Assembly: GCA_017467105.1 (NCBI GenBank)
Contig: JAFTSU010000002.1
Span: 130,481 to 194,480, forward strand
DNA length: 64,000 bases
From: Clostridia bacterium
GTDB taxonomy: Bacteria > Bacillota > Clostridia > Oscillospirales > CAG-272
Direction: 5' to 3'
The number at the start of each line of letters is the position of its first letter. Within the stretch, counting starts at the first letter, position 1. The notes beneath the pieces are model-generated. The model worked only from the letters and a program-made list of their open reading frames with translations. It was not told the DNA's origin and ran no database searches. The translations under genes were made by a program, and so were the position numbers. Positions 4,540 to 58,514 of the stretch are shown here, in pieces.

Positions 4540-5190
4540 ATGACATTCAAGGAAAAACTCGTTATACTTAGAAAGGGCAAGGGTCTCACACAGGACGATT
4601 TCGCCAGTGCAGTAGGCGTATCAAGACAGGCAGTTTACAAGTGGGAATGCGGTCAGTCTTATCCCGAAGTACCCAAGCTTCTCGAAATGAAGCTTCTCTT
4701 CGGTATCTCTCTTGATGATCTGCTTGACGACAGCTACGATATTCCTCTTCCCGAGAAAAAGAAGAAGAGAATATCCAGAAAGACTAAGGAAAAGATCGAG
4801 GAGCACGTAGAAACAGCTACTTCGGATTCAAAAACTCACACTGATCTTATGAGTGAAGTAGCAAAGGTTGCAGTAGCACCCAAGGCAGAGCCCGCTCCTG
4901 CAGCAGCTCCCGCCCCTAAGGCAGCACCTGCACCTGCAGCAGCATCCGCTCCTAAGGCAGCACCTGCGCCTGCAGCAGCTCCCGCTCCTAAGGCAGCACC
5001 TGCGCCTGCAGCAGCACCCGCTCCCAAGGCAGCACCTGCGCCTGCAGCAGCACCCGCTCCCAAGGCAGCACCTGCGCCTGCAGCAGCACCTGCTCCCAAG
5101 GCAGAGCCCGCTCCTGCAGCAACACCTGCATCCAAGGCAGAGCCTGAGAAAAAGGGCGGATTCTTTGGAAGAATATTCGGCAAAAAGTAA
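4540..5190 (+). CDS. XRE-family helix-turn-helix protein with a Pro/Ala/Lys tandem-repeat linker and an amphipathic C-terminal tail
   Basis: N-terminal HTH (LTQDDFASAVGVSRQAVYKWECG), seven 12-aa repeats (APAPKAAPAPAA), C-terminus EKKGGFFGRIFGKK. AGGAGG RBS at 4529-4534. Confidence 0.85.
   Translation: MTFKEKLVILRKGKGLTQDDFASAVGVSRQAVYKWECGQSYPEVPKLLEMKLLFGISLDDLLDDSYDIPLPEKKKKRISRKTKEKIEEHVETATSDSKTHTDLMSEVAKVAVAPKAEPAPAAAPAPKAAPAPAAASAPKAAPAPAAAPAPKAAPAPAAAPAPKAAPAPAAAPAPKAAPAPAAAPAPKAEPAPAATPASKAEPEKKGGFFGRIFGKK
4871..5145 (+). repeat. 36-bp tandem repeat, about 7.5 copies, in frame inside the HTH gene
   Basis: The Lys codon AAG recurs at 4882, 4918, 4954, 4990, 5026, 5062, 5098 and 5134, an exact 36-nt period. 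Units are near-identical. Confidence 0.95.
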
Positions 5191-5381
5191 TCTAAAACGC
5201 TAAAAAAAGTAAAAAATTATTTACATATTTCGATAAAATACGGTATTTAATATCTGAATAATTTTAAATAATCTGACAATACTTTATTAAGCAATCAAGC
5301 AGGGCGATGTATTATTGGCTGACATAGTAACCAATATCTCGCTCTGCTTGAAAAAATATACGGTGTAATAAGGATAAAAGT

Positions 5382-5797: not shown

Positions 5798-7492
5798 ATG
5801 ATTAAAGAAAAGACGAAAAAAGACAGAAATACAAAGCTTCGCATAATTCCGCTTGGCGGACTTGGCGAGGTAGGAAAAAATATGACCGTTATCGAGTACG
5901 GAAATGACATAGTCGTGATCGATTGCGGTATGGGATTTCCCGATAAGGATATGCCGGGTGTAGATCTTGTAATGCCCGATATTTCTTATTTGATAAAAAA
6001 CGCGGAAAAGATAAGAGGCGTTCTGATCACTCACGGTCACGAGGATCATATCGGAGCTGTTCCTTATCTCTTAAGGCAAATAAACGTACCGATCTACGGA
6101 ACCAGACTTTCTCTCGGAATAATAGAGGGTAAGCTTGACGAGGATCCTCCTGAATATTATCCGGAGCTTTACACCGTGGAAGCCGGAGATACTGTAAATC
6201 TAGGAGTATTTAAGGCTGAGTTCGTTCACGTAAATCACTCAATAGCCGATGCCTGTGCCATAGCGCTGAAAACACCTGTTGGAACGGTATTCCATACAGG
6301 AGACTTCAAGCTTGACGTTTCGCCTATCGACGATAAAATGATAGATCTTACAAGAATCGGTGAAATAGGAAAGAGCGGTGTGGAAATATTACTTTGCGAA
6401 TCCACAAACGCAGAGAGAGCAGGCTTTACACCGTCCGAGAGAACGGTAGGATCATCTCTTGAAAGAATATTCGCGCAGTATAGCGATAAGCGACTTATAA
6501 TTGCGACCTTCTCTTCAAACGTTCACAGAGTACAGCAAATAATCAACGCCAGCGCGCGCCACGGCAGAAAGGTGGCAATAATCGGCAGAAGCATGGTCAA
6601 TATAATCGGAGCAGCGCTGGAGCTTGGATATATGGAGCTGCCCGACGGAGTACTTATAGACATATCTGAAATAAAAAAATACCGTCAGAACGAAATAACC
6701 CTTATAACCACAGGCAGCCAGGGTGAGCCTATGTCGGCTCTGTACAGAATAGCCTTTGGCGCTCACGATAAGATAAAGGTTACCTCAAACGACGTGGTAG
6801 TTCTCTCCTCCAGCGCAATTCCCGGTAATGAAAAGCTTGTCGGAAGTATTATAAACGCACTTGTTGAGAGCGGAGTCAAGGTAGTTAACGATTCTACCGA
6901 GGAGATACACGTATCCGGACACGCCTGTCGGGAGGAGCTGAAGCTGATGATGGCTCTGACAAGACCAAAATATTTTATGCCCGTTCACGGCGAGGCGCGT
7001 CATCTTAACGCAAACCGCGAGCTTGCTGAATTTATGGGTATTCCATCAAATAATATTTTCGTATCGGAGATAGGTAAGGTTCTGGAGATAGATAAAAAGA
7101 GCGCGAAATTCTCAGGTACTGTTCCGTCAGGAAACGTTCTGGTTGACGGACTTGGAGTTGGAGATATAGGCAGCGTGGTTCTTCGCGACAGAAAGCATCT
7201 TTCCGAGGATGGACTTGTGATAGTAGCCTTGACTCTGGATAACGAGGGATTTATACTCTCAGGACCTGATATCGTATCAAGAGGCTTCGTATACGTCAAG
7301 GAGTCGGGAGATCTTCTCAGAGAGGCAAGATCTGTTGTAAGCTCAACGGTTGAAAAAATGCTATCCGGTAAGTCGAGAAAAAATAAGGATCTGAACACCG
7401 TGAGAACTCAGATCAAGGAGGATTTAGCAAAGTTTATTTACAAGGAAACCAAGCGCCGACCTATGATACTCTCGGTTATTATGAGTGTGTAA
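5798..7492 (+). CDS. rnj: Ribonuclease J (metallo-beta-lactamase / beta-CASP)
   Basis: HGHEDHIG motif, RIIPLGGLGEVGKNM N-terminus, 564 aa typical of RNase J. Confidence 0.93.
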   Translation: MIKEKTKKDRNTKLRIIPLGGLGEVGKNMTVIEYGNDIVVIDCGMGFPDKDMPGVDLVMPDISYLIKNAEKIRGVLITHGHEDHIGAVPYLLRQINVPIYGTRLSLGIIEGKLDEDPPEYYPELYTVEAGDTVNLGVFKAEFVHVNHSIADACAIALKTPVGTVFHTGDFKLDVSPIDDKMIDLTRIGEIGKSGVEILLCESTNAERAGFTPSERTVGSSLERIFAQYSDKRLIIATFSSNVHRVQQIINASARHGRKVAIIGRSMVNIIGAALELGYMELPDGVLIDISEIKKYRQNEITLITTGSQGEPMSALYRIAFGAHDKIKVTSNDVVVLSSSAIPGNEKLVGSIINALVESGVKVVNDSTEEIHVSGHACREELKLMMALTRPKYFMPVHGEARHLNANRELAEFMGIPSNNIFVSEIGKVLEIDKKSAKFSGTVPSGNVLVDGLGVGDIGSVVLRDRKHLSEDGLVIVALTLDNEGFILSGPDIVSRGFVYVKESGDLLREARSVVSSTVEKMLSGKSRKNKDLNTVRTQIKEDLAKFIYKETKRRPMILSVIMSV

Positions 7493-7530
7493 TTTAATTA
7501 AAGATAATATTATAACTGTTTAACTCAATA

Positions 7531-7580
7531 AAAAAACACCGAATTTGTAAGTTTAAGTTTACAAAAACGGTGTTTTTTAT
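7531..7580. terminator. Bidirectional intrinsic terminator between rnj and the convergent 183-aa gene
   Basis: AAAACACCG...CGGTGTTTT stem with an inner TTTGTAA/TTACAAA stem. A-run upstream and T-run downstream. Confidence 0.75.
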
Positions 7581-7581
7581 T

Positions 7582-8133
7582 TTATATCAAGATATTGTTT
7601 ATCAGAGATAGTAGCTCCGGCATAATGATAATTATACTTGTAAATGCAATGAAATAAAGCAGACAAAGCAGTATTGTATTTATTACGGTAACGGAATTGT
7701 ATGATTCGATTATCCGTGCCGGCTCGAGATTATCCTTAGATATATAAAGCTTTGCGGTTTTATAATCCACTCTTTTTTCTTTATACTTTTTATCCTTGAT
7801 CTTCTCTATATACTCGTCATAGGAAAGCTTCTCCTCCCCAACGACAGAAACCAGCTTTTTCAGCCTTGTCTCTCCTGAAAGCTCCAGCTTTACTAATGGA
7901 GAGGATATCCTCATTTCCTCAAGCGTTCTCGCGCTTTCCTCACTTAACGCCTCGTACCTCAGCAGCTTTTTAACCGTATAAATCAGAAGTCCTCTTTTAA
8001 TATTTGTGATAACGGTTGCCAAGATCAATCCGACGAGCACCACAATTAAGAGCTTATTTATCTCCAGATCGAAGCCTATATTTTCATAGTCGTTCAGATT
8101 GATATTAAGGTATTTATTGAATATATTTGTCAA
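7582..8133 (-). CDS. Hypothetical membrane protein (two predicted TM segments)
   Basis: 183-aa ORF with TTG start, AGGGGAA RBS and TM helices near both ends. No family recognised. Confidence 0.55.
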   Translation of the reverse strand: MTNIFNKYLNINLNDYENIGFDLEINKLLIVVLVGLILATVITNIKRGLLIYTVKKLLRYEALSEESARTLEEMRISSPLVKLELSGETRLKKLVSVVGEEKLSYDEYIEKIKDKKYKEKRVDYKTAKLYISKDNLEPARIIESYNSVTVINTILLCLLYFIAFTSIIIIMPELLSLINNILI

Positions 8134-8280
8134 ATTTTATTTCCCCTTCTCTTTTTAAGTAGGTATATCCCGTGTTAATTCTTTACCGGATAAGTATACC
8201 ACTTTTTTATTCTTTATTCAATGACTTGATATAAACAATCGGTTAATAAATAAAGATAAAAATTAATAGGAAATTAATAA

Positions 8281-9174
8281 TTAAATCTCGTCAAGAAATG
8301 CCTTGCCGCAGATCAGAGTAATAAGATCGTCAAGGTCGTCGTTATCCTCGTAGGAGAGGGTCAGAGTTTTTCTCTTGCCCTTCCCTTCTATCCTTACCTT
8401 TCTGCCAAGATGAGATTGCATACGCAGCTCAAGCTCACGGAAGTAGTCAATGAGAGGAAGCTCCTCTTCCTCGTCTTTATTAGCCTTCTTTGGCTTGTTC
8501 ATACGCTTTACCTCCTCCTCAAGCACTCTGACGGAGAGATCCTCCTCAACGGCGCGCTGAGCCAGAAGTATCATAGAATCGCGGCTTTTAAGTCCGAGAA
8601 TAGTTCTCGCGTGGCCGGAGCTTAATTCCTTTGATGCAACGAGGGTCAGTACCTCGTCGGGAAGATCAAGGAGTCTGAGAGTGTTAGCAATAGCGCTACG
8701 GCTTTTGCCAACCTTAACGGAAAGCTCCTCCTGGGTCATATCAAATTCCTCAGCGAGAGACTTGTATGCCATAGCCTCCTCCAGAGGATTAAGGTCCTCG
8801 CGCTGAAGATTTTCTATAAGTGCGATCTGAGCAGTCTTTCTGTCATCTCTGTCCAGGACGATGGCGGGTATCTCGGTAAGTCCGGCAATCTTCGACGCGC
8901 GGAAGCGGCGCTCGCCCGCAATTATCTGATATCTGCCGTCACCGTATTCTCGGACCAGAATAGGCTGAAGCAAGCCGTTTTCTACTATTGAATCGGCAAG
9001 CTGCTCCAGAGCCTCCTTATCAAAATACTTTCTCGGCTGATCACTCTTGGGATCGACCATAGATATTTTCAGATGGGAGATCTTGTCCTCTGAGTGACTT
9101 ACCTCCTCTGTGATAGCGTTATCGAGAAAAATTGCATCCAGACCTCTGCCAAGTCCGCTGTTTTTCTTTGCCAT
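8281..9174 (-). CDS. parB: Chromosome partitioning protein ParB/Spo0J
   Basis: GERRFRA (CTP-binding box), HTH region SVKVGKSRSAIANTLRLL, GGAGGA RBS upstream. Confidence 0.93.
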   Translation of the reverse strand: MAKKNSGLGRGLDAIFLDNAITEEVSHSEDKISHLKISMVDPKSDQPRKYFDKEALEQLADSIVENGLLQPILVREYGDGRYQIIAGERRFRASKIAGLTEIPAIVLDRDDRKTAQIALIENLQREDLNPLEEAMAYKSLAEEFDMTQEELSVKVGKSRSAIANTLRLLDLPDEVLTLVASKELSSGHARTILGLKSRDSMILLAQRAVEEDLSVRVLEEEVKRMNKPKKANKDEEEELPLIDYFRELELRMQSHLGRKVRIEGKGKRKTLTLSYEDNDDLDDLITLICGKAFLDEI

Positions 9175-9301
9175 TATTGCTGTCCTCCGTAAGACTTATA
9201 AAAATAGAAGCGCCACGAAAAGCGGCGATATTTAACCGGGTTGTGTAAAAATGACGGTGAAATGATCACGTGTAAAAAATATTTTTGAAAAGATAAACGA
9301 C

Positions 9302-9466
9302 TGTGGAAAAGTAAACGTAATATGCGGTTAAGTTTCCACACCTAAGAAAAAACGCAAAAACCCACACCACGTAAGGAAAAATCTAAGGTTTTTAAAAATT
9401 AGAATGTGGAAAATCAACTTCAAACTCACAAGTTTTCCACACTATTCACATTTAAAATGTGGAAAA
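9302..9466. promoter_or_regulatory. DnaA-box cluster in the parB-parA spacer
   Basis: TGTGGAAAA at 9302, 9405 and 9458; TTTTCCACA at 9433; GTTTCCACA at 9332; CTATTCACA at 9442. The first four are one mismatch from TTATCCACA/TGTGGATAA. A further TGTGGGTAA is at 9793-9801. Confidence 0.7.
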
Positions 9467-9825
9467 CTTTCCGACACGCCTTTGTTTTGCTTTAATATAA
9501 AAACTATTAAAGTGGGGCGTAGTTATCAAATTGTTATGTTTTCACACCTGTAAATATATATAATAAACCACATTTATAATTAATTAAATCAAAAAAATAT
9601 CAAAAAACAATAAAAAGTGGGGGGTGATATTTGTGATAATTAAGAAAAATGTTACGTGTATAATGCTGATATTAGTGTTTTTTATGTAAAGACTGTATTT
9701 TTTAACAAAGTGGGGAATTTAACCCTAAATAGATTAAACTAATATGAATAATTAAAGAATAAAATTGATAATTGGTTAAAAAATCAATTCAATGTGGGTA
9801 ACTGTATACAGAACTCAATGTTTTA

Positions 9826-10590
9826 TTAAATACGAAGCATAAGCTCCTTGGCAACAGCCGCGTATTCAAGCGAGCCCTTGCCGTAAGGATCGTGATAGCA
9901 TATAGGCTCGCCATAACCCGGAGCCTCTGAAATACGAACCGTACGGGAGATAGGAACCTTGAAAAGCTTATCCTGATAGTACTTTTTCAGCTCCGCAACC
10001 ACCTGACCCGTAAGGGTGAGTCTGCCGTTGTACATTGTAAGCAGAATTCCCACTATCTGCAGAGACGGGTTGTATAGTGATCTTATCTTTTTTATGGTGT
10101 TCATAAGCTGCGACATACCCTCCAGCGAGTAGAACTCACACTGCATAGGTATAACGACTCCGTCAGATACAGTCAGAGCCTTTACGGTCAGCATTCCCAA
10201 CGACGGTGGGCAGTCGATAAATATGTAGTCAAAATCATCCTTTATGGAGTCGAGCGCGATCTCTGTAAATCTGAGCTTATCGTCCTCAAGGTCATATAGC
10301 TCAAGCTCTGCGCCTGCCAGATCGATAGTAGCGGGAACGACCCAAAGGTTTTTAAAGTTTGATTTAACGATCGTGTCCTTTATATCGCTTCTGCCGATGA
10401 TAACGTCGTAGATGGTGCTTTTAATTTTTGATTTTGATATGCCGAGACCGCTGGTAGCGTTGCCCTGGGGGTCCATATCTATCATCAGCACCTTTTTGCC
10501 TTTATTAGCGATCTGAGCTGATATATTTACGCAAGAGGTGGTCTTGCCAACTCCGCCCTTCTGATTTGAAAAGGAAACGACCTTTGCCAT
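9826..10590 (-). CDS. parA: Chromosome partitioning ATPase ParA/Soj
   Basis: Deviant Walker A KGGVGKTT. ATG 10590 is preferred over TTG 10602 because GGAGG lies 5 nt upstream. Confidence 0.93.
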   Translation of the reverse strand: MAKVVSFSNQKGGVGKTTSCVNISAQIANKGKKVLMIDMDPQGNATSGLGISKSKIKSTIYDVIIGRSDIKDTIVKSNFKNLWVVPATIDLAGAELELYDLEDDKLRFTEIALDSIKDDFDYIFIDCPPSLGMLTVKALTVSDGVVIPMQCEFYSLEGMSQLMNTIKKIRSLYNPSLQIVGILLTMYNGRLTLTGQVVAELKKYYQDKLFKVPISRTVRISEAPGYGEPICYHDPYGKGSLEYAAVAKELMLRI

Positions 10591-10973
10591 TTTTTCCTCC
10601 AAGAAATTTTGATGATTTTTAATGCTTGTGTATTGAATTTTTCACGTACGTGAGCGAGAAAAATAAATATTTTAAATAATAAATTAGCGGCTAAATAAAA
10701 TCCGGCGGGGTGATAATTGTCGTAGAGCTTTGCGTGTCCGAGTGGGTGTCTATACGTCCGAGCTCCTTTACCAAAACCGTGATCACCGGTTGATCGGAGT
10801 GAAAGGTAACCTTGGATGTCTTGGGTGTTTAAGCTTTGGTTAGAAATTAAGAATTTAGCCGACATTAGTTCACATTCTGATATGCCGTGCGGCTTTCAAT
10901 CTTATTTTACCGCGCAGAGTTGCTTTGCATTTCACTACGCGCTGCTTTAAGCTGCGAAGCACGCCTTACAGTA

Positions 10974-11165
10974 CTACCCTGCTTCATATCTGTTGGTAAT
11001 AATAACCCGCCTTGGAACTCTTCGTAACGCTACCCTGCTTCAGATCTCCCGATAGTATTGCTTTGGAACACTTAGTAACGTTGCACAGATTCAGTGATCT
11101 TAGTGGTGCTACCCTGCTTCATATCTATTGGTAATGGAAACCTGCTTTGAAACGCTCTAAACAAT
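10974..11165 (+). repeat. Three degenerate direct repeats (56- and 79-bp periods) with an 18-nt conserved core
   Basis: CTACCCTGCTTCATATCT at 10974 and 11109, CTACCCTGCTTCAGATCT at 11030. Each is followed by a GGTAAT/GATAGT..CTTTGGAAC-like segment. Confidence 0.8.
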
Positions 11166-12679
11166 TCTGTTGAATTATGTTTTTACTCCGAATACTTCTG
11201 TATTGTGGTTCGTTTTTTACGGTTTCGCCAGTTTTTATCTTTTTCACGTCTCCCATGAGCTTTATGTAAACCTTCCCCGTGCTGCCGGCTTTCGATATAG
11301 TCTGCTTGAATACTTGATGCGGATGAAAAACTAATAGGTCGTTCTTTCGCTCTGTAAAGATAATTTATAGACGTGATAGTGTATCTGATCGAAAAAAACA
11401 CCGTAATGCGCTAAAAAAGGCAAAATTTCGCGTCAGAGAGGGTGTATAGCCTCAACAATAGGACTGTTTTTGTAAAAATCGGTTAATTTCGGCTGTTAAA
11501 ATTAAGCAGTAACGCATTTTTAGGGTGTAATGAAATAAAGCATTTAAAGCCTGCGCTAAGGAATACAAGAAGATTAATTTATACTGTAGTCTGACAACGT
11601 GAATGATACCAAAAATTACCAAGATACACTTACCGCTTTTTTAATTAACGTTTTGATATACTAATTTATGTTATTTGTGTTAAAATCATAAAAAACCATC
11701 TTTTTGAGCAAAATTAAAATTAAATAAAATAATCAAGCGGCAAACAAAGACGAAAGTTATGTGGCGCTGCAAAATAAGGATTAAAAGCCGAAAAAGCGGG
11801 ACGGATCTGATTGATAAGCAATGAGTAACATGCGTGAGTTGATTTATATTAATCTTCGGCGTTATTAATTAAATGAAACCGTACCAAATCAAGAATAAAT
11901 CGGCTAAAAAACAAACCGTAGCGATTTTGGCTCTTACACTTCCCTGTTTAAGCATACGTCTGAAGGCTTGAAGTATAAATAAGACCAGAAGCCGAGAATA
12001 GAACCGGAGAACCAAAATTTATATCTATAAATAAAATATTTTAAATAATATAAAATATATAAAATTGATATTATCAAATAATATTATACTATAAAGGACG
12101 AAAATTGTCAACTATAACAGTACTTATTTACTTAAAAAATGATAGAAAAAAGTAGTTCTTTTAAAAGAGTCGGAGATGTATCTCGTGATCAAAAAAGAGG
12201 AATAATTAAAAAAATATTTAAAGCATAATAATAATAATTAGTCGAATGATGCTATAAATAAATGTTAATCACGTCAGAGAAGATCGGAAAAAATATATAC
12301 TTAAACCTCTGGAATACAAAAAATGATAAACAAGCTAAATATACCATTATTAGTGTATAAAAATAGATTCATACACAATATATTGTGCCTTTTTACATTA
12401 ATTATGATGCAAAATATTATAAAATTGATTAAACAACCTAAAGTTCCCTAAAAGTTATGTTTGGTTTACAAAAAATAACCTGAGCAAGAACAAAATACAA
12501 TCTTTTAAAATATTTGTAATAATTATACGAGCGAGAAATATATATAAAAATTTGAATATAATCTATAACGACCCACTCTTGTCTCATACGACTCTAGTAT
12601 AACAAAAATTGGTGTGAGTATTCGGTGTTTAAAATAAGATGACTGAGACTATAAATCAATAAATTCATCTTAAAAGCTA

Positions 12680-12695
12680 TGTTTCACGTGAAACA
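12680..12695. promoter_or_regulatory. parS: parS site 1 (ParB/Spo0J binding site)
   Basis: TGTTTCACGTGAAACA, a perfect 16-bp palindrome one base from the B. subtilis parS TGTTCCACGTGAAACA. Confidence 0.85.
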
Positions 12696-12734
12696 TAAAC
12701 AATAAATGATAAATATGTGAAGTTTAAGCTCCGA

Positions 12735-12750
12735 TGTTTCACGTGAAACA
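12735..12750. promoter_or_regulatory. parS: parS site 2
   Basis: TGTTTCACGTGAAACA. Confidence 0.85.
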
Positions 12751-12793
12751 CCAAAAATACCTATAAAAGTATTATTTTTTATCAAAATTGTAT

Positions 12794-12809
12794 TGTTCCA
12801 CGTGAAACA
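12794..12809. promoter_or_regulatory. parS: parS site 3
   Basis: TGTTCCACGTGAAACA, identical to the B. subtilis consensus. Confidence 0.88.
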
Positions 12810-12861
12810 ATTAAATGTATTCATTTTGAATTTTTTTGATTATAGCTAACGAAATAACTAT

Positions 12862-12877
12862 TGTTTCACGTGAAACA
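12862..12877. promoter_or_regulatory. parS: parS site 4
   Basis: TGTTTCACGTGAAACA. Confidence 0.85.
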
Positions 12878-12925
12878 GAACACGGAACGCTCATTTTATG
12901 CTTATATTTATTAAAAATTGCCAAA

Positions 12926-12941
12926 CGTTTCACGTGAAACA
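12926..12941. promoter_or_regulatory. parS: parS site 5
   Basis: CGTTTCACGTGAAACA; only the outermost base differs. Confidence 0.8.
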
Positions 12942-13893
12942 ATAGAAATTATCGAAAATATCTTAAAATATATGCTAATAATATTGTTTTACATAAAAAT
13001 TAACAAAAATGATACAGCACATCTAATAAGGAGGAATAAAATTAATATTTTAAATATATAGTACATAAATCCTTAAAATACTAGTCTGATTAATCTTAAA
13101 TTGATTGATTTATTAAAATAATAATAATGAAATATCAAGGATAAATACATATAACAATTAGCAATATATAATAAAACACCTGTCAAACCAAAGTATGTAT
13201 TTAATATTTTATAAAATAATATAAATATTATTAATTATATGAATATTGAGTGATAATTATCAAAAAATATGCTGTGAAACAGAGGGTTATTATTAAAAAA
13301 TGGAAAAAAATACCAATTTGCTTTTCTCGGGTGATTTATTCACAAAAAATAATGAAATTTGAATAATTTGTTAGTATTTTATACGAAATATCATTTAAAA
13401 ATATGTAAAATATTACTTTTATTACCTGTAATAATTTGTAAAATTCGTAATTAATACTAATTATATTTTTTGAAAATTATAAATAATTAGTGAATAAATA
13501 TTTACAGATGTGTATAAATATACAATCGGTATTGTAATGTTTTTGATACGGTATTTAATTATTGTCTTCTTTAAGCTTGAATATTTTTAGATGTTGAACT
13601 TCTTTTTTTGTTTTTTGAATGGTACTTTCAATATCTTTCTTGTTTTGGTTTTTGTTTATTTGTGCAGGCTGTCGTTTTTTTGTAGTGTATCAGCTTTGAA
13701 AAATTATCAACTTTATCTGATCCTCTTAGTACCGAAACGTATAAAGCTTTATTACGCTCAAATATCGGGCTTTGCTTGCGTGTGGCTCGTTTGTCATGTT
13801 TATTATTAACATTGGATAAAGTATTTTCTAAATTATACAAGCCGTAGTTTAAGTAAATTATTGTTTGTATAGCGATGTATGTTTTAATTAAAA

Positions 13894-13911
13894 TGTAAAT
13901 AATTATTTACA
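13894..13911. promoter_or_regulatory. Perfect 18-bp palindrome TGTAAATAATTATTTACA (candidate operator, factor unknown)
   Basis: Exact inverted repeat 9+9 with no spacer. Related copies are at 22043 and 23296. Confidence 0.4.
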
Positions 13912-14640
13912 ATTTGATTTTTTGGGGTATACCCGTGTAAAGTTTTATTTGTTTTGTTGGTTTTTTTAATTTTGTTTAACTGTTAATTTTTACTGTTTAT
14001 ACATTCGTGATTATTATATAAACTGTCTTTGGTTTTAAACGTACTTATCTAGCTGCGTCGCTTTTATCTGTCCGGTTCTTTTTCTGACCTTGAGAACGGG
14101 ACCTATTTATATATGCCATTTTTCCTTGCGTTTAAAGGCGTTATTAAAAAATGAAGCTGGATCTTCAGATCGGGACACTTTGATAACACGCACAGGTGAA
14201 TCTCGGAGGATCCGGATAGGTAGATTACTTTTACTTGTTTTTTTATCAGCATATTTCGTCTACCCTTTTTTGATATATTTTTCTGCTTCTTGTATTTATT
14301 CAACGACTTTTTATGTATCATTATATGAATAAATATTCTATTTTGTTAATTATAAAAAATTGTGTTTATTTCCTTTGTTGAAAAATAATATGCATATGCT
14401 GTTATATTCTGTTTTTTTATTAATTTCGTACTTTTTCTGTTTAATGTTTATATTCATCCACTTGTGATTTTCGTTAATATAATCTTTGCTATTTTTTCGT
14501 ATTTAGCTTTGATTTGGCAGGGAAGGGTAGCGCGTGTATAAATTCTTTTATTATTGCCTTTTTTTATAAGGAAAATATTTTTTCTTTCTTTAAAGGCTAT
14601 AAACACTTAATAATTTAATATAATTATTAAAAACTAACAG

Positions 14641-14697
14641 AATAAAAAATACACCCGTACAGATATTCTCTAAGAGAGATACCGTATAGGTGTATTT
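14641..14697 (-). terminator. Intrinsic terminator downstream of dnaJ
   Basis: Long imperfect hairpin (ATACACC...GGTGTAT outer stem) followed on the minus strand by TTTTTATT. Confidence 0.7.
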
Positions 14698-14724
14698 AAA
14701 TAATTATTAATTTAGATGTTTATA

Positions 14725-15870
14725 TTATTTATTAAAAAGCCTTGAGAATAGTGACTGTCTGGATTTAGGATTTTTATCGTCCATAGTATTTGCAAATTCC
14801 TCCAGAAGATCTTTTTGCTTCTGCGTTAGGTTTCTTGGGGTCTCTACAACTACTGTGATGATCAGATCACCTTTTCTACCGTTGTTTACGTTAGGAATTC
14901 CTTTGCCGCGCATAGTGAAGGACGCCCCACTCTGAGTACCCTCGGGTATGTGAAGCTTTTCAGTCTTGCCTCCAAGAAGCGGAACCTCGATATCCGCGCC
15001 TAAGGCAGCCTCTGTGAAGCTAATAGGAACCTCGCAATAAATATGATAGCCGTCTCTGGTGAATACCTTATCCTCTTTTACTCTGACCTCGATGATCAGA
15101 TCGCCGTTTGTGCCACCGTTAACACCGGCAGAGCCTTGACCGCGGAGGATAATATTCTGCATGTGATCAATTCCTGCCGGAATATTGACCTCAAGCTTCT
15201 TATTGATCTTTATCCTACCCTTACCGTTACAGTTTTTGCAGGGGCTCTTGATGATCTTTCCGGTACCGCGACAGCTCTGACACGAGCGTTGCGTTTGCAT
15301 ATATCCCAGCATAGTTTGTTGTTGAACGGTAACTCTGCCTGTACCGCGACATGTGGCGCAGGACTCGACAGTAGAGCCCTTTTCAGCACCCGTTCCACCG
15401 CATTCTCCGCATGATTCTATACGCGCAAATGATATATCCTTTTTACATCCGAATGCAGCCTCCTCAAAGGAAATCGTGACACGTGTAGCAACATCATCAC
15501 CTTCGATTGCCATATTCTGACGCCCTCTGGAAGAGCTGCCGCCACCAAAGAATGAGGAGAATATATCGCCGAAATCAAAATCAGCTCCGCCAAATCCACC
15601 GAAGCCTCCAAATCCTGAACCGCCTCCGCCGGAGGCCGGATCAAAGGCTGCGTGCCCGAATCTGTCATACTTAGAGCGCTTGTCTGCATCCGAGAGCACA
15701 GCGTATGCCTCGTTTACCTCCTTGAATTTCACCTCGGCTTCCTTGTCGCCCGGGTTCATATCCGGATGGTATTTTTTTGCAAGGGATCTATACGCTTTCT
15801 TTATTTCATCTTCTCCTGCGTTTTTTTGAACGCCGAGAACCTCGTAGTAATCTCTTTTGTTGTCTGCCAT
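14725..15870 (-). CDS. dnaJ: Molecular chaperone DnaJ
   Basis: J-domain HPD ([11 protein letters not shown]), G/F region, four CxxCxGxG zinc-finger repeats. Confidence 0.97.
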
Positions 15871-19609: not shown

Positions 19610-20095
19610 GTATTATTTCAAGAAAAATTATGAATTTTGTGTTAACAATTGGCTCTGGTGGGTCGAAAGTGCTAAAAAAATGTAACAATTTCAAATTTTC
19701 TCCTTCGGAAAAGACAGATCGTGTGTCGCCTCTCATGCGCTTCTTGAAGAAACCAATGAGAGAGTAAAGCCGTGCCTGCGTGTCTTAATATTATAATAGG
19801 AAGAAAAAGCTGTTGCCAATTTTCTATCATATTTCACCTAAAATATTATAGAATGAAGCTATTATATATTATTGTGCTTTTGTTGTAATTTATCTTAAAA
19901 TGTAATAAAATGTAAATAATTATAGTCAATTTTAAGTATTTTCGCGTCTTTTTGTGTAAAAATGTATAAAAAATGAAAACAAAAAATATTTTACGTCTTT
20001 GTTTTTTGTTATGATCCGGGAATTGTTTTTGGGTTTTGTGATTCTTAAATAAAATGATAATAGAACATAATGGAGCATTCAAAATAAAAATGTAC

Positions 20096-21856: not shown

Positions 21857-22042
21857 TCGGAATTACTTCATAAATAGGTATTAAAAGAGTTGAAAACCTC
21901 GAAATACCGAATATGCTGTAGTATTCCGGTTTTTACGCCGGTTGGGACTATAACGCTTGTGTTAACCGAAATCAACGAGAATAAAGAAAAAACTAAGGCC
22001 TGCTCGAAGCTGACTTTGGTTTTTTAGGTAAACTAAAAAAGA

Positions 22043-22060
22043 TGTAAATAATAATTTACA
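22043..22060. promoter_or_regulatory. Near-palindrome TGTAAATAATAATTTACA (same family as 13894)
   Basis: 16/18 positions symmetric. Located in the rny-ymdB spacer. Confidence 0.35.
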
Positions 22061-22415
22061 AAATTGCTGTTTTTTGTAAAATTATAGTGTTTAGTTATAA
22101 TGTATAAGCGCAGTTTGTTGAATATTAAGTTTTTGTGCCTACCGCTATTCTTTAATAAGTATCACCGTTGCCTTACCGTCTGTGAAAGTCGGTGACTCTG
22201 TAGGAAGAAGATATCCGTCGGGAACTGCATTATACGTCACGCCAATGTCGGATCCGAGCTCGGTAGTAAAGCTTGCCGCGACGGACGGTAAATATTTATG
22301 ATATTACGCGGAGCGCGATAGCCCTAATTTTCTAGGACACTTTTTAGTCCTGTGATATCGTCATCTTTTAATAACTGTCTCTCATAACTGCCTTCGTCCC
22401 ACGTTCAAAAAGCAC

Positions 22416-23284: not shown

Positions 23285-23295
23285 ATCTTATTAAA

Positions 23296-23313
23296 TGACA
23301 ATAATTATTTACA
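23296..23313. promoter_or_regulatory. TGACAATAATTATTTACA (same palindrome family), 45 nt upstream of mnmG
   Basis: One half-site is perfect; the other has two changes. Confidence 0.35.
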
Positions 23314-58321: not shown

Positions 58322-58514
58322 CGGTATCATAATCTTGCGGTTTGCATAGTATATAATAGGTGAACCCAAAAATCAATATGGAGAGCTATATGAAAATAGT
58401 GCTTGTTAGAAGTCCGAAAGTTATAAGATATTTCTTGTCAAAAATTTTCGGAGTAAAAACACAAAACGGTAAATAATAAGGCAAAATACAAATAAATATT
58501 TACAAAAACATAAT

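Follow-up and report, generated by a model that had tools for sequence, protein, structure and literature searches.

What is the role of five short palindromes packed into 262 bp of gene-free DNA in an uncultured gut bacterium of the class Clostridia? The window, i.e., the whole stretch of DNA that was analysed (64,000 nucleotides), contains five 16-bp parS sites, to none of which a strand is assigned. Sites 1 (12680–12695), 2 (12735–12750) and 4 (12862–12877) read TGTTTCACGTGAAACA, a perfect palindrome, site 3 (12794–12809) reads TGTTCCACGTGAAACA, the same as the optimal Bacillus subtilis parS (PMC8299390), and site 5 (12926–12941) reads CGTTTCACGTGAAACA. The consensus TGTTNCACGTGAAACA is matched without mismatch by four of the five sites and with one mismatch (C at position 1) by site 5. 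The start-to-start spacings are 55, 59, 68 and 64 bp. The spacers of 39–52 bp have GC contents of 16–29% and are mutually unrelated, similarity being limited to 3–4 nt that prolong the palindrome at sites 3–5. The original prediction had described the array in these terms: its coordinates and sequences were found to be exact to the base, its spacings were reproduced on re-reading, and the identity of the third copy with B. subtilis parS and the unrelated, AT-rich nature of the spacers also stood. No helical phasing of the five sites was observed, the spacings leaving remainders of 0.24, 0.62, 0.48 and 0.10 turn. The locus is 100% identical across four independent metagenome assemblies and is thus not an assembly artefact.

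The array stands alone in its surroundings. A search for TGTTNCACGTGAAACA with up to two mismatches on both strands of the 64 kb returned 10 strand matches, which are the five array sites only; 0.04 were expected from shuffles, and the observed total was reached in none of 100 shuffles. Allowing three mismatches revealed no further parS in the 64 kb (0.93 expected), and the roughly 73 kb scanned around oriC, made up of the window and 8.7 kb upstream of it, contained none outside the array. None of the ten CACGTG hexamers outside the array in the window has parS flanks and none lies within parB, in agreement with the earlier claim that no other such hexamer in the 64 kb, parB included, is flanked in this way. 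A parS half-site, GTGAAACA, is present at 13274–13281 (plus strand) as the only copy in the window outside the array. The palindrome TCACGTACGTGA at 10642–10653, some 50 nt ahead of the start of parA, resembles the parS core with four additional bases in the centre; it was not counted as a parS site.

The proteins expected to act on such sites are encoded nearby. On the minus strand, parB/spo0J (8281–9174, 297 aa) is followed, across a 650-bp spacer, by parA/soj (9826–10590, 254 aa). The ATG at 10590 is the more likely start of parA, the ORF tool having started at the TTG at 10602; the proximal parS site lies 2090 bp from the former and 2078 bp from the latter, close to the 2 kb originally given. 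ParB contains Pfam domains ParB_N (E = 1e-33), HTH_ParB and ParB_C, and among PDB structures it matches B. subtilis Spo0J best (6SDK, E = 2.7e-56). Its motifs comprise LGRGLDAIF from residue 8 (N-terminal ParA-interaction motif), GERRFRA at 87 (CTP-binding) and ENLQRE at 121. In the helix-turn-helix (HTH) domain, R159/T165/D170/G187 occupy positions equivalent to Caulobacter R173/T179/A184/G201, i.e., the parS type, and GKSR159 and SSG187HAR190 align with Caulobacter R173, G201 and R204. The R..G pattern at the specificity positions is invariant among parS-specific ParBs (PMC7383237). ParA is a Soj-type Walker ATPase with a deviant Walker A motif (KGGVGKT), Pfam AAA_31 (E = 1.7e-67) and CbiA domains, and no N-terminal HTH.

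The neighbourhood is that of a chromosome origin. The window opens with gyrB and gyrA, with RNase J, a 183-aa gene, parB and parA following later; beyond parA, 4.1 kb without a credible ORF precedes dnaJ-dnaK-grpE-hrcA on the minus strand. In a longer contig of the same strain, dnaA-dnaN-recF-gyrB lies directly upstream of the window; about 16 kb separates the array from the dnaA-dnaN spacer, and it is thus close to the origin. The host carries SpoVA and GerA genes and is considered spore-forming. A tRNA/tmRNA scan found none. Within an HTH_3 gene (4540–5190), a tandem repeat of about 35 bp at about 4876–5144 differs in length between same-strain assemblies (L205 versus the window).

Read as a centromere and ParB-loading site, as originally proposed, the array holds up in silico, with consensus sites, an adjacent parS-type ParB and Soj-type ParA, an origin-proximal position and conservation in relatives. 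The five 16-mers very probably constitute the chromosomal centromere (parS array) of this spore-forming Clostridia bacterium. In the ParB cycle, the HTH domain binds parS, and CTP at the GERRxR-containing N-domain closes dimers into sliding clamps. At the present locus, open ParB dimers would bind each palindrome through the HTH domain, and CTP bound at the GERRxR N-domain would close clamps that slide off along the DNA on either side. With five independent loading sites in 262 bp, the clamp flux from effectively one genomic point would be multiplied, and the ParB–DNA complex would stimulate ParA/Soj for origin segregation and recruit SMC. As a secondary role, ParB occupancy would feed back on parAB transcription. 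Two reports describe how ParB nucleates on the parS palindrome and, on binding CTP, becomes a clamp that slides away into the adjoining DNA (PMC7053999, PMC8367383). In vitro, the ParB loading rate, DNA condensation and the stability of the condensed state rise with parS copy number (PMC8299390). A single parS is nevertheless enough in vivo in Pseudomonas aeruginosa and other species (PMC4368675; PMC8299390), so that five sites need not strengthen the centromere. In view of the in vitro dependence on parS number, the suggestion that the array would be an unusually strong clamp and SMC loading point is plausible.

Is the array peculiar to this bacterium? At least 12 related loci, with ParB identities of 51–87%, carry three to six parS sites upstream of parA, and only the 16-mers are kept, the spacers being unrelated. 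Five sites are present in L275, L280 and L281 (86–87% ParB identity) and four in L276 (87%), followed by three in L277 (85%), three in L278 (84%), four in L279 (83%), at least four in L023 (77%), three in L129 (76%), and five each in L128 (75%), L108 (60%), L048 (57%) and L105 (51%). Synteny of the array with parA is thus retained down to 51% ParB identity, and conservation upstream of parA with unrelated spacers points to a chromosomal centromere, at which ParB would be loaded, that has been kept across these lineages. Neither copy number nor even position is strictly constrained, as indicated by two cases. Within one species, parS has eroded, site 3 differing at two positions between L275 and L280. 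In L282 (GCA_045635225.1; 85% ParB identity), no parS with up to two mismatches was found in 20 kb around parAB; this locus (7008–10000) has TrmO as the upstream neighbour instead and a parA-parB spacer of 1.5 kb, and its array has apparently been separated from parAB by rearrangement. In more distant relatives (43–50% ParB identity), the sites are laid out as in B. subtilis, one within parB and another 1–2.4 kb upstream.

Tight arrays extend well beyond these relatives. When one genome per species was scanned for a pair of perfect parS cores 46–76 bp apart, at least 120 species matched, and the matches listed span Bacillota, Actinomycetota, Bacteroidota, Planctomycetota, Proteobacteria and other phyla. 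Among the matches listed, the densest 300 bp of a locus holds at least four sites in 14 loci and at least five in four, the Lachnospiraceae locus L099 having seven in its densest 300 bp and eight in all. Again among the matches listed, parA and/or parB lies within 8 kb in 70 of 120 tight-pair genomes, and a site lies within 500 bp upstream of parA in 44 of 120. Across the surveyed arrays, the copy number ranges from two to eight. Tight chromosomal-type parS pairs were also observed in 66 IMG/VR contigs (L207–L272), with up to seven sites in 270 bp (e.g., L259, 6137–6405); these contigs may be phage-plasmids or misclassified bacterial fragments.

The original prediction regarded the array as exceptional against a Firmicute model of scattered sites. 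This part found no support on comparison, as arrays of four to eight sites per 300 bp occur in many Clostridia and in other phyla, usually directly upstream of parA. In B. subtilis, ten Spo0J/parS sites are scattered, eight of them in the origin domain and one inside spo0J. The present system shares with it the consensus, a homologous ParB core and the Soj partner, but its sites form a cluster of 262 bp instead of being spread over hundreds of kilobases, and parB itself is free of them. Clustered parS is found in most bacteria, scattering being peculiar to a few lineages including Bacilli, where it has been suggested to serve sporulation; a tight cluster avoids the SMC–SMC collisions provoked by distant sites (PMC8357415). 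In Myxococcus xanthus, 22–24 parS sites occupy a stretch of about 3 kb that lies some 4 kb upstream of parA (PMC3899335). The two arrays are alike in containing multiple sites of the same 16-bp consensus a few kilobases upstream of parAB and near the origin, together with a canonical CTPase ParB. Unlike in M. xanthus, only five sites are present here, at about 2.5 times the density (one per ~60 bp versus one per ~140 bp), and the host is a Firmicute spore-former with the array within a gene-free AT-rich block. In gut Clostridia, parS clusters have been located where the Hi-C secondary diagonal crosses (PMC10197239).

Close counterparts occur upstream of parA in other Clostridia and other phyla: L099 (eight sites, 46-bp period), L121 (six), L105 (five) and L128 (five), among others, have the same motif, position and order of array, promoter and parA. 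Their arrays lie 30–500 bp from parA, as against 1.6–2.1 kb in the window and relatives with at least 86% ParB identity, in which non-coding DNA is inserted on both sides of the promoter. The array is denser than the textbook cases and is matched or exceeded by many genomes in the tight-pair scan. Related bacteria commonly carry arrays just as tight, so that the present one is ordinary and belongs to a known kind; the unusual feature is its setting, namely the large gene-free block, the displaced promoter, the tandem repeats and a cluster of DnaA boxes between parA and parB. Likeness to a plasmid centromere had also been proposed. In the sopC centromere of the F plasmid, which has the plasmid-type SopB as its partner, an entire unit of 43 bp is repeated regularly in tandem, in 12 copies. 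Both loci contain several ParB-binding palindromes within a few hundred base pairs, whereas the present one has unrelated spacers of variable length, a chromosomal-type ParB and a chromosomal location. A sopC-like plasmid centromere was rejected on account of the unrelated 39–52-bp spacers, the housekeeping neighbours and the lack of plasmid or phage similarity, and the plasmid-style reading was abandoned on the same grounds, the par genes being of chromosomal type.

What surrounds the array in terms of transcription? A sigma-70 consensus promoter, TTGACA-17-TATAAT (perfect, 12/12), is located at 12083–12111 on the minus strand, facing parA and away from the array, 569 bp from the latter and some 1.49 kb ahead of the parA ATG. 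Relatives with a compact locus have the corresponding promoter 22–86 nt upstream of parA. The compact relatives other than L279 were examined, and all show the succession of array, 20–120 bp, near-consensus sigma-70 promoter (TTGACn, 17 nt, TATAAT), a 22–86-nt leader and parA; L048 has one parS site also within the 5′ UTR. In the window, L275, L276 and L280, the array is 520–640 bp from the promoter and 1.6–2.1 kb from parA. With the promoter at its position in the window, either parA would have a very long leader or a short transcript of its own would be made. At 11901–11918 there is a weak terminator-like hairpin, and RNA folding of the putative leader over 11890–12020 gave z = −0.9. On the other side of the array, an intrinsic terminator of the hrcA-grpE-dnaK-dnaJ operon (14643–14697, minus strand; hairpin of −26 kcal/mol, z = −5.7, then U6) is predicted to shield the array from read-through transcription. 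With this terminator on one side and the parA promoter firing away on the other, the loading zone would be free of convergent transcription.

Such a promoter arrangement raises the question of whether the array is mainly a transcriptional operator, by which ParB, bound at the sites or spreading from them, autoregulates the parAB promoter while segregation proceeds via other sites or array-free. This reading draws on the compact relatives, in every one of which the array ends 20–120 bp upstream of the −35 element of a near-consensus parA promoter, and on the 5′ UTR site of L048. P. aeruginosa ParB represses parS-adjacent genes (PMC7022226), and Vibrio cholerae ParB2 is reported to autoregulate (PMC4010829). 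However, the distances given above for the window, L275, L276 and L280 amount to a poor operator geometry, chromosomal ParAs are devoid of a DNA-binding autoregulatory domain (PMC7022226), and the roughly 73 kb around oriC holds no other parS to act as the centromere. A predominantly regulatory array is thus considered quite unlikely. The operator and centromere roles are not mutually exclusive; the array is possibly an operator for parAB as well, and its position against the parA promoter in compact relatives makes ParB feedback on parAB transcription probable.

Two further explanations were considered. In one, the array and its AT-rich surroundings are the relic of an integrated plasmid, phage or mobile element that came with a partition site of its own, and play no part in the chromosome. 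The low GC content of the region (17–28%, versus about 47% for the window) would fit a foreign origin, as would the IMG/VR contigs with tight parS pairs (66 contigs, up to seven sites), but all intergenic DNA of this genome is below 30% GC. Neither the 4.1-kb block nor the array had a meaningful blastn match in PLSDB (plasmids) or INPHARED (phages), no integrase, replication or other mobile genes are present, and the chromosomal-type parAB lies between gyrBA/RNase J and the dnaK operon, with array–parA synteny kept in relatives down to 51% ParB identity. This origin is judged very improbable. In the other, the repeats are due to chance or form an array unrelated to ParB, i.e., a CRISPR-like array, an operator of another CACGTG-binding regulator or Noc sites. 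Short repeats with variable spacers superficially resemble a mini-array. CRISPR arrays have repeats of at least ~23 nt, near-constant spacers, and cas genes or a leader, whereas the present repeat is a 16-nt palindrome with irregular spacer lengths, and there are no cas genes in the window. Noc, with the specificity residues QKKR, binds the NBS consensus ATTTCCCGGGAAAT; the motif here is parS instead, and the sole ParB-family protein present has R..G rather than the Q/R of Noc. The match covers the whole 16-nt parS consensus, beyond CACGTG, with 0.04 matches expected by chance, leaving next to no probability for this last explanation.

With the array taken to be a chromosomal centromere, its setting requires consideration. 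The gene-free block (10591–14724) is 4.1 kb long, six times the length of any other intergenic region in the window, and provides about 2 kb of gene-free DNA on either side of the array. The flank between the array and the dnaJ terminator (12942–14642, no strand assigned) is AT-rich, at 17–37% GC. The stretch from the promoter to parA (10591–12082, minus strand) is lineage-specific and a putative long leader, with a GC-richer part of 40–46% over 10600–11500. Three units of ~55 bp with the core GAAGCAGGGTAG are located at 10974, 11030 and 11109 (within 10963–11156). Tandem repeats were also found in L275 (24 bp × 9.4 at 7864–8086; 19 bp × 5.9 at 7065–7177) and in L276 (40 bp × 5.1 at 8184–8389; 22 bp × 6 at 4995–5125; 35 bp × 2.5 at 4670–4759). 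Such lineage-specific repeats are concentrated in the GC-richer kilobase just upstream of parA, between promoter and gene.

The window has lost His_Phos_1, the gene that borders the array in relatives. The gap between His_Phos_1 and parA is 4061 bp in L275 (4504–8564), 4120 bp in L276 (4390–8509), 3785 bp in L280 (4780–8564) and at least 2046 bp in L281. At ParB identities of 85, 84, 83 and 76%, it measures 1413, 945, 368 and roughly 200 bp, respectively. Relatives with at least 86% ParB identity thus have in common the length of the ~4-kb block, but not its sequence. Global alignment of the non-coding segments of the window, L275 and L276 against shuffles revealed homology only in a weak patch (13297–13558 of the window) and in the parA-parB spacer, and none in the leader or the array-to-promoter segment. 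Rfam searches over 9100–14800, at gathering thresholds and at E ≤ 1, gave only a spurious miRNA match on palindromes (E = 0.09). No Pfam domain was detected in the ten longest small ORFs of the block, RNA folding of 10603–11500 on the minus strand gave no sign of a structured RNA (z = −0.04), and tblastn with flank ORF fragments of the relatives and His_Phos_1 gave noise only, with no recognisable pseudogene remnant in the block. A 22-nt direct repeat (10661–10681/12029–12050) that might have bounded an insertion in the parA leader was rejected, being low-complexity and AT-rich, with E of about 0.06 and a third copy at 13038. In L275, both strands are open across the 24-bp repeats; the resulting 134-aa ORF is not called by gene finders either and was therefore treated as non-coding. 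An AT-rich palindrome, TGTAAATAATTATTTACA, lies at 13886–13919, and similar copies were observed near 5204–5230, 19906–19932, 22039–22061, 23293–23313 and 58483–58505; this recurrent intergenic palindrome may be the operator motif of a regulator.

Why would a block of this length be kept? One reading is that it forms a maintained "regional centromere", a platform insulated from transcription on which ParB clamps would slide and condense DNA. Its basis is that the sub-clade keeps the length (4.1, 4.06, 4.12, 3.8 and at least 2 kb in the window, L275, L276, L280 and L281, respectively) while the sequence turns over completely. Eukaryotic centromeric satellites show both sequence turnover and lineage-specific tandem repeats. 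Under the regional-centromere reading, the parA promoter may have been pushed 1–1.5 kb from its gene as a by-product. The proposal is tentative and rather unlikely to be correct; neutral inheritance of an ancestral insertion and an action of the repeats in the parA leader RNA are equally open alternatives for the block.

The locus bears on several wider questions. A spore-forming Firmicute that appears to use one tight parS array rather than scattered sites corrects an expectation centred on B. subtilis, and bears on the suggestion that scattering in Bacilli serves sporulation (PMC8357415). According to the scan, the order of array, consensus promoter and parA is widespread in Clostridia, with copy numbers of two to eight. 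[quoted passage not shown] The sub-clade with ten-fold expanded centromere surroundings and a promoter shifted by 1–1.5 kb provides a comparative handle on a possible influence of ParB spreading on the architecture of the surrounding genome.

The parB-parA spacer (9175–9825) has features of its own. A cluster of DnaA boxes (9302–9466, no strand assigned) in this 650-bp intergenic region comprises four perfect TTTTCCACA boxes at 9302, 9405, 9433 and 9458, with near-matches at about 9335 and 9791; a stretch of 24% GC comes next. Between dnaA and dnaN, the same genome has only two DnaA boxes (5150 and 5318 in L205), fewer than in the parB-parA spacer. In the parB-parA spacers of relatives, four DnaA boxes were found in L279 and L125, and zero to two in the others. 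The cluster may serve to titrate DnaA or in regulation, or may belong to the origin. Three copies of AAAGTGGGG, ~100 bp apart (about 9510, 9614 and 9708), are located where the same spacer is AT-rich.
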